42,392 bases of DNA from a virus. Lineage: Duplodnaviria; Heunggongvirae; Uroviricota; Caudoviricetes. Below, one piece after another: positions 2,795 through 15,447 of this stretch. The stretch lies in the IMG/VR virus record IMGVR_UViG_2778261252_000011; one strand, written 5' to 3'. The notes below the pieces were generated by a model that was given only the letters and a program-made list of their open reading frames with translations, did no database searches and was not told the DNA's origin. Both the position numbers and the translations under genes were made by a program. Within the stretch, counting starts at the first letter, position 1. Each line of letters begins with the position of its first letter.

Positions 2795-5387
2795 TTGCAT
2801 ATTCCTTAGCCCAGCGGGGCAGTGATAATGTCTTAATAGCTGGCCATTCATCGGTATTCAGGCAGTCAGACAGGGTTCGCAGATTGCGGTGATATTCCTG
2901 TTGACCTGCCAGTTTTGCTTCTTCGCCCATCATGAAAATTTCAACCGGATAACGTCCGCATTCAATAGTTGTGCTGGCAACCAGAAAAACGAAAGTTGGC
3001 TGCACTCCAAACTGTGCTTCATAACCGTCACTGTAGAATGCATCCTGAACGTGATAGCGGTAGTCGTAATAAGCGGTTTTGAATCGTTGAATATCCGCCG
3101 TAGTTTTCACGTCCATGATCCAGTGAAATTCAGGGATAATTTTGTCCGGACGGCACCGACACAAAATTCCTGTTTCAGGATCTTCCCAGTAAATTGATGA
3201 TTCAGCGTGTCCGGCGCTTTCAACAAGCCATTGCCCCAGCGGCAAAGCCATAACGCTTTGATACATGAGTTCAATTTTCCGGCCTTCTTCCGCAGTGATA
3301 ACCGTTTTTCCTGTGCTTGCGCATTCCATCAGAAACGCTTTCTCTTCTTCTTTTCCGGCGTTTGTACGGCGGTTAAATTCAGGTGCTACGATAAAGCGGT
3401 TACTGAATTCTTCCGGTTCAAGTACCCGGCAGTGGAAAGCAGTTCCTAAATCGAGCGTTTTTGTCTTTGTGGTGTCCACGGGGGCATTTTTACGCCACAA
3501 ATATAGTGCCGGAGTATCAGCAATGTCATCGAGCTGAGACTTACTGATACCGGGACCCGCGTGGTAATTCTCATTCGAAATTCCGTAATAAATACCTGGC
3601 TCTATGTCTTCTACGATTACGGGATCTGCGACTTCGCCAGTTTCATCACTGCAATCGTGATGCGGATCGCTGCCAGCATTCTCATTGTGCGGATGTTCAG
3701 CGCCTTCCATTTCCTCCGGATCATTTTCCTTAGCTTCAACCTGACTCTCTTCATCGAATGTTTCCTGGTATGTTGCGTCGCCCATCACCGCACCACAGTC
3801 AGGGCAGTTATCCCCGCCAGTCTGGCCGCAGGCATTGCAGGCTATTTCCGGTTCCTGTTGCACTACTGGCTCAGGTTGATTCATATCTGGGCTGGTTTTT
3901 TCCGTTTCTGGCTGGTTCTGGTACACACAATCGCGAGTCTGGATCCCCTTTACCCATTTCGGATCGTTCGGGTCGCTAATTCCGTCAACAAATTCACCAC
4001 GTGATGCAGCAAGCAATTTATCGGCATCGACAGGATTTTTTGATGGAATGTTTTTCCGGGCTTCATGGAGTTCTGCCCGCAGTTCCTGATATTTCGCATC
4101 AACAGAATTTACCTGTGACTGAGCATCCAGCGGCTGCGTGTCCTGATGATGTTCAGTTGCGTCCGGTTCCATTGTTTCAGCCTCTCCCTGTTCAACTGCC
4201 GTTGTTCCAGATGGTTGCGGTTTTTCTTCATCATCCTGTTTTCCTTCTTCTGTTACTCGCTGCGGCATCGGGGCAGAGGAGCGACCGCAGGCAATATCCA
4301 CGATTTCCGGATCAGGGTTGGCATGATCGGTTTCAGTCAGTACTTTGTTCAGATATTCAGTGACGTGCGCGGGGATGACCTCGATCCCAATTGGTGCTTC
4401 TTTTACGGACGCAACCACGATGGCGCGGGAATAATCCAGCCCGCCAGGCATGGTGATGAATTTGTCGCGGAAAACAGAAAAGGGCGGTTTATTTTCAGCG
4501 ATAATTTCCTCAATGCGTTTAGCGTGTGCCGGATGAAGGTTATAGATGTCCAGATCCATTGAACGGGCCAGTACGCCAGTGGCTACGTCGCGCGCCAGTG
4601 ACGTCAGATCGTGTACGAAACCTTCGCCGCGATCGGTGAGGTTTCCGCCGCCAGCATTAGCACCGGAAGCCGTGCGAGTGATGTGTGAAACACGATTACC
4701 CTTCATCCACTCTTTTGTCAGCAGTCCTCGATCGGTGTAGTCAGCGTTCAGGTATGCTTCGAAAAAAGCAGTTATCAGTCCCAGGTTTGAATTACCAGGA
4801 TTAGGGAAAACTTTGTCAGTGTCACGAACCAGTTTGTGGAGTTCGCGAATTTCCAGCGGGTCGAGCAGGCTGGTTTTGTGGGAAACAGCCAGGGCAGTAA
4901 CAGCCGGTAGTTCTTCAGCCCGAGCAATGTGTAATGCCTGGAGTCCGTCGCGTGAAACGTGCGTTACCGGTTTTTCGCTGCCGTGTTGAGCAAGCCAACG
5001 AATGGGCAGTTCCTGGCCAGAAATTGGGAGTAGCATATTCTCCTCAATCTCAGTCATGTCTTCGCCGTTGACGTTGGTATTGCCTTGATAATGAGCGTTG
5101 TCTGGTGCTGCTCCCGGTTTTAGTTCCCATGTCATGGAGTCTTTGCTGAGTTGATAGCGTTCACTCCAGGTAAAATCGATCTCACCTTCAGCGGGCAGGT
5201 CATTAACGACAGGAAAATTCGTGGCAACAGCTTTAAAATAGCTGCTCAGTTTTTTACCTGACTTAACGATCAGGTAGTCCAGAGTGGCACAGGTCGATTC
5301 AAAATCGTTGCTTGCCCACAGGACGACGTCAGGTTCACCGGATGATTTTTTCGCTTTCCGTAACAGGAAGAGTGGTTTTGTGCTCAT
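2787..5387 (-). CDS. recE: RecE exodeoxyribonuclease VIII (866 aa)
   Basis: 866-aa ORF upstream of and overlapping recT; size and context match Rac recE. Many antisense ORFs lie inside it and are rejected. Confidence 0.9.
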
Positions 5388-9979: not shown

Positions 9980-10726
9980 ATGAAAAATATTGCGACAGGC
10001 GGCGTTCTGGAACGTATCCGCAGACTGGCCCCGCCACATGTAACCGCGCCATTCAGGACGGTGGCGGAGTGGCGCGAGTGGCAACTTGCAGAAGGCCAGA
10101 AACGTTGTGAGGAGATCAACCGTCAGAATCGTCAGTTGCGGGTGGAAAAAATCCTGAATCGCTCCGGCATCCAGCCGTTGCACCGCAAATGCTCGTTTGC
10201 GAATTACCAGGTGCAGAACGACGGCCAGCGATACGCGTTGAGTCAGGCGAAATCCATCGCTGATGAACTGACGACCGGGTGTACAAATTTTGCGTTCAGC
10301 GGAAAACCTGGTACCGGGAAGAACCACTTAGCGGCAGCTATCGGGAATCGCCTGCTGAAAGACGGTCAGACAGTGATTGTGGTTACCGTGGCTGATGTTA
10401 TGAGTGCCCTGCACGCCAGCTATGACGACGGGCAGTCAGGCGAAAAATTTTTGCGGGAACTGTGCGAAGTGGATCTGCTGGTTCTTGATGAAATTGGCAT
10501 TCAGCGCGAGACGAAAAACGAGCAGGTGGTACTGCACCAGATTGTTGATCGCCGGACAGCTTCGATGCGCAGCGTGGGGATGCTGACAAACCTGAACTAT
10601 GAGGCCATGAAAACATTGCTCGGCGAGCGGATTATGGATCGCATGACCATGAACGGCGGGCGATGGGTGAATTTTAACTGGGAGAGCTGGCGTCCAAATG
10701 TCGTCCAGCCAGGAATTGCGAAGTAA
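9980..10726 (+). CDS. ydaV: YdaV DnaC-like helicase loader (248 aa, AAA+ ATPase)
   Basis: Walker [16 protein letters not shown] and Walker B LLVLDEIG; position after the initiator gene. Confidence 0.85.
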
Positions 10727-10748
10727 TTTTTACCGGGAGAAAAATTTA

Positions 10749-11510
10749 ATGGAGACTGTTTTTGACGCACTGAAAGCAATGGGAAAAGCCACATCCATAG
10801 AACTTGCTGCTCGACTTGATATCAGTCGTGAAGAAGTGCTGAACGAACTATGGGAACTGAAAAAGGCTGGTTGTGTTGATAAAAGCGCGTACACCTGGCG
10901 TGTGGCTGATAACAACGTTCAGCAGGAACAGCCAGCGCAGGTAGAACTGCTGGAAGAAACCACCACAGCAACAGTAGCGAAAATCTCAGAGTGCGATTTA
11001 ACCGCGACGATTGAACAACGCGGACCACAAACGGCTGATGAGCTGGCTACATTGTTTGGTACCACATCACGCAAAGTGGCTTCAACGCTGGCAATGGCAA
11101 TCAGCAAAGGTCGTCTGATTCGCGTAAATCAGGGCGGTAAATTTCGTTACTGCATACCGGGCGATAATTTACCAGCAGAGCCGAAAGCAGCATCGGTAGC
11201 GGAAACTGATGGTAAGGCCTTTCCTCAGACCGCAGGTGTTGCGTTACCAGTACAGGAGGCTGCAACACAGGAAGATATTAAAACAGAAACTGTGGCGGAC
11301 ATTGTGCAGTCGCTGCCATCGTTTACTGAAACGCGAGCGGATGACCTGGTTTTACCATCACTGCATATGGCAAACCGCGAACTGCGTCGGGCGAAAAATC
11401 ATGTCCAGAAGTGGGAGTGTGTCTGCGCCGCGCTGCGTGAGTTGAACAAGCACAGGGATATTGTACGACAGATTACTGATTCTTCCCGCCATGTTGCATC
11501 GGAAAAGTGA
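10749..11510 (+). CDS. ydaW: YdaW-like protein, apparently full length (about 253 aa); winged-helix-like N-terminus
   Basis: Start chosen at METVFDALK (ATG 10749), clear of the ydaV stop; an alternative upstream ATG at 10698 overlaps ydaV. Confidence 0.6.
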
Positions 11511-11525
11511 TTGCCGGAGGCACCT

Positions 11526-11948
11526 ATGGCAAAAGTATTTACACCAGAAGAGCGGGAAAAAATTAAAGGGCAGGTTGTTGAACTTGTACGTCTGAGCGGT
11601 CGCGAGACGTTACGGCAACTGGAAGCCAAGACAGGTGCGACAAGATATCTGATGAGTGTTCTCGCCAGTGAGCTGGTTGCCAGTGGCGATGTATACAACT
11701 CTGGTTACGGGTTATTCCCGTCTGAACAGGCGCGTAAAGACTGGCAAAACGCCCGCAAAAAACTATCGAGGGCAAAGGTGAAGAAACCTGCTGTAGTTGA
11801 TCCGGACCTTATCTGGTCATTACCAGACGGAGAAATACGCCGCTATGACAGGCGTCTGAATATAATCTGTCGCGAGTGCCGGAAGAGCGAAGTCATGCAG
11901 CGTGTACTGGCGTTCTATCAGGGTAATTTTCAGGATGTGCTGTTGTGA
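11526..11948 (+). CDS. Hypothetical protein (140 aa), winged-helix-like N-terminus
   Basis: ORF with GGAGG 7 nt upstream of ATG 11526; not present in my recollection of K-12 Rac. Confidence 0.5.
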   Translation: MAKVFTPEEREKIKGQVVELVRLSGRETLRQLEAKTGATRYLMSVLASELVASGDVYNSGYGLFPSEQARKDWQNARKKLSRAKVKKPAVVDPDLIWSLPDGEIRRYDRRLNIICRECRKSEVMQRVLAFYQGNFQDVLL

Positions 11949-12110
11949 GCCAAATTAACAATCAGGGAACTGCGTGAACTGAAAGAGAAATCATAATCCA
12001 AATCTGAATAATTAAATTTAGCACTGTAAATAAAATTTAATCCTTAACCGGAGGGGGGGGGCTGCACCCTCAAAATATTAGGAGGCGGCCCGAAAGGGCG
12101 GTAATGAAAA

Positions 12111-12614
12111 ATGACTGAATTAACCAAAAAGCAATTAATCGAAGAAGCTAAATTAAAAATAGCGATTGAGAAATGCCACCCCAATTCAGGGATGGCACGG
12201 GTAGAGGGCGAATTATTCAAAATTGCTCTGGCATCGCTGGAAGCAGAGCCAGTTGGTGATTTTTATGAATACAAACCGGATGACTGGTATCAGCGTTCGG
12301 CTGGAGATAAAGCGCCAAAATGGACGCCACCCTATGCCGTTTTTCCAGCGCCCGTAGTGCCGGAAGAAATGGATTTGCTTACATGCCATCTCGATGGTGT
12401 AACTGAAACATATGCTGAGGGATGGAACGCTTGCCGCGCTGCCCTGCTTCAGGGCAAAGGGGAGCCCGGGAAACAAGTTCGCGAATTGACAATGCTGGTT
12501 AAACAATTGGTTAGTCAACTGAAGAAAGCGAAACCGGGCTGCAAATTGCCGGATAAAGTGATGGACTACCTGGAGCGAAGCGGACTTATAAGCGTGGAGG
12601 ATGTTTTACGATGA
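12111..12614 (+). CDS. Hypothetical protein (167 aa)
   Basis: ORF MTELTKKQLIEEAKLK...; preceded by a G9 tract and a small GAAA hairpin; no family recognised. Confidence 0.55.
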   Translation: MTELTKKQLIEEAKLKIAIEKCHPNSGMARVEGELFKIALASLEAEPVGDFYEYKPDDWYQRSAGDKAPKWTPPYAVFPAPVVPEEMDLLTCHLDGVTETYAEGWNACRAALLQGKGEPGKQVRELTMLVKQLVSQLKKAKPGCKLPDKVMDYLERSGLISVEDVLR

Positions 12615-12694
12615 CCTGGCCTGAAGCATTCACAACGGTAGGAATTGCGATGGCGGTGGCGCTGGTGGTGTATTCGATTTGCCGCTGGGGTTGA
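12611..12694 (+). CDS. Putative 27-aa hydrophobic micropeptide, translationally coupled (ATGA overlap) to the upstream gene
   Basis: Hand translation MTWPEAFTTVGIAMAVALVVYSICRWG; single predicted transmembrane helix; followed by a terminator hairpin. Confidence 0.3.
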   Translation: MTWPEAFTTVGIAMAVALVVYSICRWG

Positions 12695-12704
12695 TAATAC
12701 TAAA

Positions 12705-12728
12705 TAACCAGCCCTTATGGGGCTGGCT
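12705..12728. terminator. Bidirectional terminator-like hairpin between convergent genes
   Basis: Stem CCAGCCC / GGGCTGG with a 5-nt loop; T-rich flank on the minus strand. Confidence 0.45.
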
Positions 12729-12734
12729 AATCAT

Positions 12735-13827: not shown

Positions 13828-13856
13828 TTGGCAGTGATGTATTGGATAGTTAGAAT
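13828..13856 (+). promoter_or_regulatory. Sigma70-like promoter for the hok-like mRNA (-35 TTGGCA, 17-bp spacer, -10 TAGAAT)
   Basis: Hexamers read directly; predicted start falls at GGTGCTTGAGGCTATCTGCCTC, which resembles the hok mRNA 5' end as I recall it. Confidence 0.45.
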
Positions 13857-14030
13857 TGCTGTGGGTGCTTGAGGCTATCTGCCTCGGGCATGAACACCAA
13901 AGGTAGATAGAGAAAAGCCCCAGTTAACATTACGCGTCCTGCAAGACGTTTAACATTAATCTGAGGCCATATCTATGCGACACATAGAGATTAGCCTCTT
14001 ACGGACCGAAAGGTCAAGGAGAAGCAGGCT

Positions 14031-14156
14031 ATGAAGCAGCAAAAGGCGATGTTAATCGCCCTGATCGTCATCTGTTTAACCGTCATAGTGACGGCACTGG
14101 TAACGAGGAAATACCTCTGCGAGGTACGAATCCGAACTGGCAGACGGAGGCTCTGA
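14031..14156 (+). CDS. Hok/Gef-family type I toxin, C-terminally truncated or divergent (41 aa); possible frameshifted allele
   Basis: Translation MKQQKAMLIALIVICLTVIVTALVTRKYLCEVRIRTGRRRL; the family-typical C-terminal segment is absent; a 19-codon mok-like upstream ORF (13975-14034) overlaps the start. Confidence 0.6.
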   Translation: MKQQKAMLIALIVICLTVIVTALVTRKYLCEVRIRTGRRRL

Positions 14157-14238: not shown

Positions 14239-14580
14239 CTATTCTTTTTTTGCGGTATAGACTTTTTCGCCTGAGAAGTCTGGAGCTACCCAAAAGTTAA
14301 TATTAAACTGAGCATCATCGCTTAGTTCAACACGGTGCCAGTATTGTGGTGGGCTTGTTGCAAAAGCGCCAGCATTAATGACTACTTTTATCTCCGGTTC
14401 AGTAGCATTCTCATCAGCAAAACCATAATATGTTACAGTACCTTCCATCACGCATAACTGTCCAAAAACACCTGCTGCTGTATTATGATGTGTTAATAAC
14501 GCTGAAGGTACGTTCTCTTTTGTGAAGAACGGAGTTGAGCGTTTGATTACCCAGTCTTTAGGAATTCTCTTGTGTGTCAT
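14239..14580 (-). CDS. YeaR-like DUF1971 protein (113 aa)
   Basis: Translation MTHKRIPKDWVIKRSTPFFTKENVPSALL... resembles E. coli YeaR as I recall it; GGAGGTGG Shine-Dalgarno upstream of ATG 14580. Confidence 0.65.
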   Translation of the reverse strand: MTHKRIPKDWVIKRSTPFFTKENVPSALLTHHNTAAGVFGQLCVMEGTVTYYGFADENATEPEIKVVINAGAFATSPPQYWHRVELSDDAQFNINFWVAPDFSGEKVYTAKKE

Positions 14581-15447
14581 AACCACCTCCCATAAAACAT
14601 GCATTATAAATGCACCCTTTTGAGGGTTATGTCAAACTGTTATGAAACACATAATTGATATGTTGATTAGAGGAGAAGATAGAATCAATATGGTTGTTTT
14701 TCGTATAACTATTTGTTTTACTTTTAGTTTGTGCATTCTGTGTGTTAGGAATAACTTATTAAAGTTTAACTAAAAAATCTCGATATAGTCCGCATAGATT
14801 ACTGTTACTGAATCTTATTGTGTGCATTAGTTGTGTTCTGAAATTTCAATTTAATTACTTATGATATATTTTTAACGATAAATGTTTTCCGGGTGAAAGA
14901 CAGTGGGGGATGAGATAAGCAATATATCATTAATCTTGATTATTTCCAGGATGCCTTTACTGTGCATATAAATAAATCATATACGCATCAAATAATGTAA
15001 AGGCATCCTTTTAGATATATCTTATCAAATGTTAATGATTTGAGTGGGAAACATGATTCCAGAAACTAATCATGCGGCTACTTTATAAAAATAATGCCCA
15101 TATAAAACAGCCAGCGAAAAGGATTACGGATAAAAAAGGAGCGAGATGTGCATAGTTGTTATTTTCCATGTTTAACCACCTTAAATAATTGATGATGACG
15201 GGATGTGCATCTGTAATGCTTTTGTTGAAATGTTATGATAAAAAAGAACTTTTTCATAACATTAAAATGTAATTTATCTAATCGTTTTTAATAATAAGTG
15301 TTGTATTTCTATCCTTGTATCAGCTATTTGATATGTAGTGTTTGTTCATGTTATGTGGAGCTTTACACCATAGCCAGTTTATTTATACTTTATTCGTCAG
15401 CCTGAACAACTGGCATCTGCTGCACTGCGCCATCGAGAGATTGAGAA

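Follow-up and report, generated by a model that had tools for sequence, protein, structure and literature searches.

Introduction

Lambda Ren is known for its phenotype, resistance to Rex exclusion. In lambda, the genes cro, cII, O, P, and ren are transcribed from pR, and the terminator tR2 follows (PMC3640518). Two other described groups bear on the locus studied here: variants of Ea22, which are built as mosaics of portable modules (PMC10834534), and the BstA family of abortive-infection proteins (PMC8585504). In this study, we analyze a block at positions 11526–12728 of a 42,392-nucleotide (nt) window, the whole stretch of DNA under study; this window is an E. coli lambdoid prophage of the Rac type (IMG/VR record IMGVR_UViG_2778261252_000011). 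The block carries three open reading frames (ORFs): ORF1, ORF2, and an 84-nt ORF for a hydrophobic micropeptide (Table 1). All three are on the same strand, and no terminator was predicted in between. An original prediction, made from the sequence, had compared this layout to a small defense or toxin module with a regulator, an effector, and a membrane peptide. We find that a new three-gene toxin or defense system at 11526–12728 is not supported, and that the block is the ordinary end of a lambda-like prophage early operon. An intact Rac-type lambdoid prophage probably ends its rightward early operon with this block, a part deleted from the Rac prophage of K-12, and the block consists of a chain of independently assorting pieces.

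Genomic Setting and Independent Assortment

Several complete genomes match the window at 100% identity over 1.4 kb around the block, and at least 80% of this stretch is found in 273 genomes. The block is also identical in the inducible phages vB_EcoS-666R9, vB_EcoS-673R7, and vB_EcoS-613R10. The genes of RefSeq record NZ_AP027971 run in the order racR, ydaS, ydaT, an O-like gene, ydaV (DnaC-like), DUF1627, DUF977, and a hypothetical protein, followed by a KilA-N gene on the opposite strand, Hok/Gef, DUF1971, and then the nin-like, lysis, and terminase genes. The block had been called unannotated, a description that holds for the micropeptide only: in RefSeq, ORF1 is a ‘DUF977 family protein’ and ORF2 a ‘hypothetical protein’. 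In K-12, the Rac prophage has ydaV and ydaW and then continues directly with rzpR, which confirms the earlier observation that the K-12 copy jumps from ydaW to the lysis remnants and places the block inside the K-12 deletion. K-12 YdaW consists of the N-terminal 151 residues of the DUF1627 protein (97% identity) followed by unrelated sequence made by the Rac deletion. We considered whether YdaW might be a DUF977 protein and rejected this assignment, as it is a truncated DUF1627 protein unrelated to ORF1.

ORF1 is the last member of a replication-linked set composed of the DnaC-like, DUF1627, and DUF977 genes, which stands behind the O-like gene, and related loci likewise have DUF977 together with DUF1627 and a DnaC-like gene. 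Its connection to the micropeptide is far looser. Among 48 micropeptide loci with at least 5 kb of flanking sequence, 30 have DUF977 upstream, at distances from 664 to 3704 nt and with variable cargo in between; the window studied here has the minimum distance and a single cargo ORF, and EDL933 has five. The upstream partners of the micropeptide comprise at least four unrelated C-termini and dozens of N-termini. The C-termini end in ...PPQEVNQ (DUF551 type), ...GLISVEDVLR (ORF2 type), ...NIEQKVNQ (the type of L0139 in the Shiga toxin (Stx) phage 933W) or ...NIEQEVNR, and ...KKKGMNQ (EaA type), and 933W L0139 has no similarity to ORF2. Because both partners and distances vary, the three parts behave as independently assorting pieces and not as a regulator–effector–peptide unit.

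This pattern bears directly on the proposed module, in which a winged-helix regulator (ORF1) and a 167-residue effector (ORF2) would act with the micropeptide as a membrane toxin or sensor. The genes are close together on the same strand, the peptide is hydrophobic, and the neighborhood is rich in defense and addiction genes, with a BstA-like gene and hok/sok directly downstream. However, the three parts do not co-vary. ORF1 is tied to the replication genes and belongs to the Ren family, and the peptide is also found in virulent phages and behind unrelated genes. In addition, neither ORF1, ORF2, nor the micropeptide has a match to a defense model in PADLOC-DB 2.0 at E ≤ 0.1, where only the neighboring KilA-N protein is recognized (as BstA). 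A module of this kind is therefore highly improbable.

Table 1. Coordinates of the features in and around the block, with the basis for each assignment
Feature	Positions	Strand	Basis
ORF1: DUF977/Ren-family winged-helix protein, 140 residues from ATG	11526-11948	+	Pfam, PHROG, AlphaFold, Foldseek, RefSeq
Junction/leader element, 107 nt, non-coding	12004-12110	+	Conservation across loci
ORF2: mosaic accessory protein, 167 residues, PHROG 660	12111-12614	+	PHROG profile match
Single-pass membrane micropeptide (predicted), 27 residues, MTWPEAFTTVGIAMAVALVVYSICRWG	12611-12694	+	Codon-phased conservation, ATGA coupling
Hairpin terminator between convergent genes	12705-12729	-	T-run on minus strand
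KilA-N/BstA-like protein, 257 residues	12735-13508	-	PHROG 6287, E 2.7e-89; PADLOC BstA, E 3e-21; Pfam KilA-N, 94.5 bits
hok/sok addiction locus	13828-14156	+	Rfam sok, 101.5 bits, at 13863-14033; Hok ORF 14031-14156
DUF1971-family gene	14239-14604	-	366-nt ORF; RefSeq coding sequence of 342 nt within

A Predicted Coupled Membrane Micropeptide

Coding signature: The ORF for a hydrophobic 27-residue peptide with an overlapping start, as originally predicted, is present and goes far beyond chance expectation. Its ATG overlaps the TGA stop of ORF2 as ATGA, and a GGAGG motif lies within the last ORF2 codons. The grand average of hydropathy is 1.09 overall and 2.1 over residues 6–24, which form one hydrophobic stretch between short charged ends. 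A degenerate pattern for the first seven codons retrieved 120 viral contigs from IMG/VR, 112 of which carry a 27-residue ORF of the micropeptide family. Computed on codons 8–27, outside the search pattern, the ratio of nonsynonymous to synonymous polymorphism (pN/pS) is 0.36 (codon-bootstrap 95% interval 0.20–0.65) in the micropeptide frame versus 1.02 and 1.25 in the other frames, and third codon positions vary 2.4–2.6 times more than first and second positions. The length is kept, and there is no in-frame stop among 56 unique sequences. Compared with the copy in a virulent Avunavirus phage, the micropeptide differs by 11 synonymous and 5 nonsynonymous changes, the latter conservative. Among 54 unique sequences, at least 53 retain each of G11, A15, A17, Y21, S22, and W26, and 50 retain A13. 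The coupling signals are equally constant: in all 112 loci, the start codon and the stop of the long ORF before it overlap as ATGA, and 8–17 nt ahead of the start there is a Shine-Dalgarno-like motif (112/112), inside the last codons of the four unrelated C-termini. Codon-phased substitutions, kept length and frame, and conserved coupling signals thus indicate that the micropeptide is coding, and it is very probably a translated, coupled membrane peptide.

Two other ways of reading the ORF were considered and rejected. A programmed frameshift fusing the micropeptide to the upstream protein is disfavored because no slippery heptamer is common to the four contexts, where it is the AUG and the Shine-Dalgarno motif that are kept. 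A micropeptide–DUF551 fusion, suggested by a mixed sequence cluster, proved to be a clustering artifact, and the member sequences show no fusion.

A different possibility is that the 84 nt are kept as nucleic acid, forming a recombination junction that, together with the 5′ leader described below, bounds the array of variable ORFs, or that they are kept as an ORF whose translation alone matters, for instance by keeping ribosomes on the mRNA up to the terminator. The 84 nt lie exactly at a mosaic boundary where the upstream and downstream sequences both switch; many copies are 95–100% identical, and a second conserved non-coding cassette occupies the other end of the array. The substitution pattern points the other way: it is codon-phased, with a third-position excess and a pN/pS that reaches at least 1.0 outside the micropeptide frame, the stop codon is kept along with the length, and the changes in the most divergent copy are conservative. 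We consider these readings unlikely as the main explanation, although a boundary role for the DNA or RNA and a role for the protein are not mutually exclusive.

Family and annotation: None of the families in Pfam, PHROGs, NCBIfam, or PADLOC includes the micropeptide; KdpF and a glycine-zipper model give weak matches below threshold, which stem from composition only. It was not annotated by the Prokaryotic Genome Annotation Pipeline in the three RefSeq records inspected, and a few GenBank records list it as ‘hypothetical’ or ‘bacteriophage protein’. A literature search for the string MTWPEAF found nothing. The micropeptide is a predicted, undescribed member of the phage single-helix small membrane proteins, and it spans temperate, plasmid-borne, and virulent phages.

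Distribution: Of 5426 complete E. coli genomes, 1610 (~30%) have the micropeptide, at 3062 places in all and with up to seven copies per genome. A total of 163 of these places are plasmid-borne, and one of the plasmids (94 kb) looks P1-like, since, like P1, it also has a gene for DNA polymerase III theta. In a search of phages, the 84-nt ORF alone matches at 79–87% identity in the Stx phages 933W, VT2-Sakai, and Stx2 I and II, likewise in the Avunavirus phages Av-05 and 18-1-2, and in other phages. In 933W, the micropeptide follows L0139 with an ATGA overlap and precedes sokW/hokW; in the virulent rV5-like (Vequintavirinae) phage 18-1-2, it follows an ‘EaA’ gene.

Five or six other micro-ORFs of 27–34 residues, each with MTWPEAF followed by a hydrophobic helix, occur in unrelated viral contigs (GC content 0.45–0.66). 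Several are ATGA-coupled to an upstream ORF, and one (MTWPEAFLGAFIVVAAVLFFGFVTDAIKINIGGR) is recorded on 260 contigs. These micro-ORFs may be distant relatives, and if they are, the micropeptide would be part of a wider peptide family. A scan of bacterial species with the peptide DNA pattern was swamped by chance matches and serves only as a control, showing that chance matches are rarely hydrophobic micro-ORFs: among 120 mostly chance matches in bacterial genomes there was one MTWPEAF-like micro-ORF besides three micropeptide copies. Dozens of Atopobium/Lancefieldella genomes have a conserved stretch, MTWPEAFLAALPIV, followed by a stop, which matches the DNA pattern only and probably belongs to an unrelated gene read in a different frame.

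Comparison with toxin loci: The size and hydrophobicity of the micropeptide are like those of type I toxins, and hok starts ~200 nt 3′ of it in 44 of the 86 loci with enough flanking sequence, the same order as in 933W. A type I-like membrane toxin, or a neutralizer of Hok-type toxins, would explain why hok/sok so often lies downstream. Apart from the small hydrophobic peptide itself, the hallmarks of a type I toxin–antitoxin locus, an antisense RNA and a promoter of its own, were not found: Rfam has no match at the micropeptide, whereas it recognizes the true sok 1.2 kb away with 101 bits, and a scan of both strands at ~12600–12730 gave no promoter-like site, although consensus scans can miss weak promoters. 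Moreover, the genes to which the micropeptide is coupled are ordinary ones, hok is missing from the vicinity in about half of the loci, that of a virulent phage among them, and in this window the BstA-like gene intervenes. A toxin or anti-Hok function is accordingly very unlikely, and a translated membrane peptide coupled to whichever gene precedes it remains our preferred reading.

The Leader Element

The gap of 162 nt between ORF1 and ORF2 contains a conserved non-coding junction or leader element of 107 nt, here called the leader. It starts with stops in all three frames (CTGAATAATTAA, 12004–12015), followed by an AT-rich stretch and a first hairpin (GAGGG..CCCTC), which in this copy carries a G9 tract at 12053–12061. 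Next come a Shine-Dalgarno motif, AGGAGG (12080–12085), a GC-rich hairpin with a GAAA loop (CCGCCC-GAAA-GGGCGG), and then the ORF2 ATG. In 87 of 124 loci, the leader keeps 80–88% identity although the ORF after it and the gene before it differ. Of the 5426 complete E. coli genomes, 2693 have it, at 4966 places that are mostly unannotated, and its distance from the micropeptide ranges from 327 to 3092 nt. Within longer arrays, the part with the ribosome-binding site and hairpin repeats between ORFs.

The leader has no Rfam family, and the scan for consensus promoters and terminators found none in it. A structured RNA is not claimed, as RNAalifold yields two hairpins with only one compensatory pair and the single-sequence fold has a z-score of ~0. 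The G9 tract stands where the consensus has GGGATTTC, and one related viral contig has G8; the tract length thus differs between copies. A UCCU at 12041–12044 could pair with the Shine-Dalgarno motif.

ORF1 and ORF2

Of the searches proposed along with the original prediction, profile searches were run for both proteins and a structure search for ORF1; they identify ORF1 as a DUF977 winged-helix protein and ORF2 as a PHROG 660 protein without a sequence match in the PDB. Both belong to known, annotated families whose function is unknown or poorly known.

ORF1: The protein matches Pfam DUF977 (PF06163) with 99.7 bits (cutoff 22.1) and an E-value of 1.9e-28 over residues 1–136 of 140 and profile positions 1–134 of 134, which makes it a member of this family. 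Its 906 relatives are all annotated PF06163, the best 120 at 88–97% identity. Over its whole length, ORF1 also matches PHROG 142, ‘Ren-like exclusion protein’ (E 1.1e-46), a label that lambda ren bears as well, so the statement that ORF1 belongs to an unknown family was wrong. By BLASTP, ORF1 and lambda Ren align only over a C-terminal motif of ~20 residues (E 2e-6), N[IL][IV]x[KR]ECRxSxxMxRVLAxY (NIICRECRKSEVMQRVLAFY in ORF1 versus NLVFKECRQSAAMKRVLAVY in Ren). In a literature search, ‘DUF977’ appears in a single paper, whose topic is unrelated.

The AlphaFold model of ORF1 has a mean predicted local distance difference test score (pLDDT) of 76, rising to 88–95 over residues 11–80, with a confident region at ~7–83. 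The model follows the topology H1–strand–H2–H3–wing, with helices at residues 7–24, 29–36, and 40–53 and a hairpin at ~57–63. The top Foldseek matches in the PDB are mostly GntR, MarR, ArsR, and MntR/DtxR-type regulators and other winged helices, with probabilities of 0.97–1.0 but E-values of 7e-3 or weaker. The winged helix that had been predicted for ORF1 is thus borne out by the model topology and the Foldseek matches; at the level of this model, the N-terminal half of the protein is confirmed as a winged helix, the E-values being weak and the fold consistent. Just upstream of the block, at 10698–11510, lies the DUF1627 gene, and the N-terminal winged helix of its product has a weak match to the Ren-like PHROG 142 (E 6.6e-5).

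ORF2: The protein matches PHROG 660 (function unknown) with an E-value of 3.8e-51, residues 1–167 aligning to positions 3–193 of the 193-position profile, and is a member of this group. Separate parts of it also match PHROGs 5117, 60, and 924. Its 2079 relatives, of 92–301 residues, have single modules in common with it, and many are fused to DUF551. The alignment has four pieces: an N-terminal helical hairpin or leader that ends in a nearly invariant IALASLEAEP comes first, and after a middle that varies, a GWNACRAA motif precedes the C-terminal helical module, which ends in GLISVEDVLR. The AlphaFold model, built from a 39-sequence alignment, has a mean pLDDT of 58.5 and a predicted template modeling score (pTM) of 0.31, and only residues 1–45 are confident. 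A profile search of the PDB returned nothing below an E-value of 0.4, and ORF2 has no family in Pfam (E ≤ 0.1), NCBIfam, or PADLOC. Membership in the Ead/Ea22 family (PF13935) was considered and rejected, as there is no Pfam match and hhalign gives a probability of 0.14% against lambda Ea22. ORF2 is best described as a prophage accessory protein from a family that has been shuffled. Its earlier placement in an unknown family stands insofar as it has no characterized family, and falls insofar as it is a member of PHROG 660.

With regard to whether both proteins are simply known replication or nin proteins beside an untranslated peptide, the answer is divided: ORF1 stands at the Ren position and belongs to the Ren family, whereas ORF2 maps to nothing characterized and the peptide looks translated.

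The Downstream End

The sequence that follows the micropeptide stop varies between loci. It may be the promoter region of hok/sok, one of several unrelated strong intrinsic terminators, or, in this window, a convergent gene. The varied terminators, or the hok/sok promoter directly after the stop, indicate that the micropeptide is the terminal gene of the unit.

The hairpin at which the block was said to end is real, and chiefly terminates the convergent KilA-N gene. It was found by the terminator scan on the minus strand only, and its fold has −19.1 kcal/mol (z −4.7) on this strand versus −16 kcal/mol (z −1.5) on the plus strand. Given the T-run and the z-score on the minus strand, the hairpin is primarily the terminator of the KilA-N/BstA-like gene. 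The same hairpin is present in only 9 of 110 micropeptide loci; elsewhere the terminator is a different one, or hok/sok comes next.

A BstA-like gene convergent with the micropeptide is found in only 5 of 111 micropeptide loci, and here looks like a moron inserted between the micropeptide stop and the hok promoter. A promoter-like sequence for hok/sok (TTGGCA-17-TAGAAT) lies at 13828–13856, and sok is 1.2 kb downstream of the micropeptide. The DUF1971 gene, next to hok and placed where the early region gives way to the nin-like genes, is likely another moron. We think it reasonably probable that the BstA-like gene with its terminator and the hok/sok locus are separate morons inserted just downstream of the early operon.

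Proposed Model

By analogy with lambda, the whole stretch would be delayed-early and read from the rightward early promoter. After ORF1, the leader would supply three-frame stops and then a ribosome-binding site and hairpin for whichever ORF comes next. The ORF2 position is that of a variable array, in which other phages carry one to several different ORFs, and the micropeptide closes this array. Ribosomes ending the last array ORF may restart at the overlapping AUG, aided by the embedded Shine-Dalgarno motif, in a termination–reinitiation mechanism. The micropeptide would cross the inner membrane once, with its acidic N-terminus out and Arg25 in, and the face of small residues formed by G11, A13, A15, and A17 would pack against a membrane helix, either of a host or phage protein or of the micropeptide itself. 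Our best guess is that the micropeptide is a small membrane-helix modulator acting early in infection, and not the toxin of a toxin–antitoxin pair. We are far less confident about any specific target than about the reading of the block as the end of the early operon.

Several points weigh against this model. The pN/pS of 0.36 was computed on related sequences found via their first seven codons and is supportive rather than decisive. The micropeptide is not listed in the supplements of three small-protein studies (ribosome profiling or small-ORF searches) of enterohemorrhagic E. coli and enterobacteria. The proposed mode of action is drawn only from sequence features and position, and the timing of expression from lambda, not from Rac-type phages. 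Lastly, given the low-confidence model of the ORF2 fold, there may be a functional tie between ORF2-type C-termini and the micropeptide.

A bolder version of the model would make the micropeptide an undescribed, broad phage effector that binds a specific membrane target and, with the leader, brackets a hypervariable array swapped by recombination. Such an effector might neutralize Hok-type toxins or block a host membrane protein used in superinfection, and its carriers would be temperate lambdoid phages, P1-like-looking plasmids, and virulent rV5-like phages. We view this extension as doubtful.

The result is deflationary for the claim of a module, and what stays is a well-supported, unannotated small gene. 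This gene is present in ~30% of complete E. coli genomes, including Stx phages, and is absent from the RefSeq annotations checked and from family databases, which makes the micropeptide a cheap and well-defined target for small-protein work. The finding that the region from the replication genes to hok/sok is a cassette array between two conserved elements also aids the reading of other lambdoid prophages and helps to locate defense and anti-defense cargo in them.

Comparison with Known Systems

The closest counterpart of ORF1 is lambda Ren. Both fall in PHROG 142 and occupy the same place on the rightward early transcript, immediately behind the replication genes, and ORF1 combines an N-terminal winged helix with the C-terminal ECRxS..M.RVLA.Y motif of Ren. 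They differ in size (140 residues versus 96 for Ren), in that their pairwise similarity is confined to ~20 residues, and in that a DUF1627 winged-helix protein separates ORF1 from the DnaC-like gene.

ORF2 is most similar in construction to the Ea22, EaA, and DUF551-type proteins. Like these, it is a composite of portable modules, many of its relatives have the N-terminal and middle modules joined to DUF551, and phage records call its neighbors or relatives ‘Ea22’ or ‘EaA’. Unlike Ea22, it is placed after the replication genes and not in the exo–xis region.

The micropeptide, finally, resembles small single-helix membrane proteins, both the modulators KdpF, AcrZ, and MgrB and the toxins Ibs, ShoB, and Hok, in its small size (27 residues), its single hydrophobic helix, and its short charged ends. 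It departs from AcrZ/KdpF/MgrB-type modulators and from type I toxins in being coupled through ATGA to varied genes, without a regulated promoter or antisense RNA of its own.

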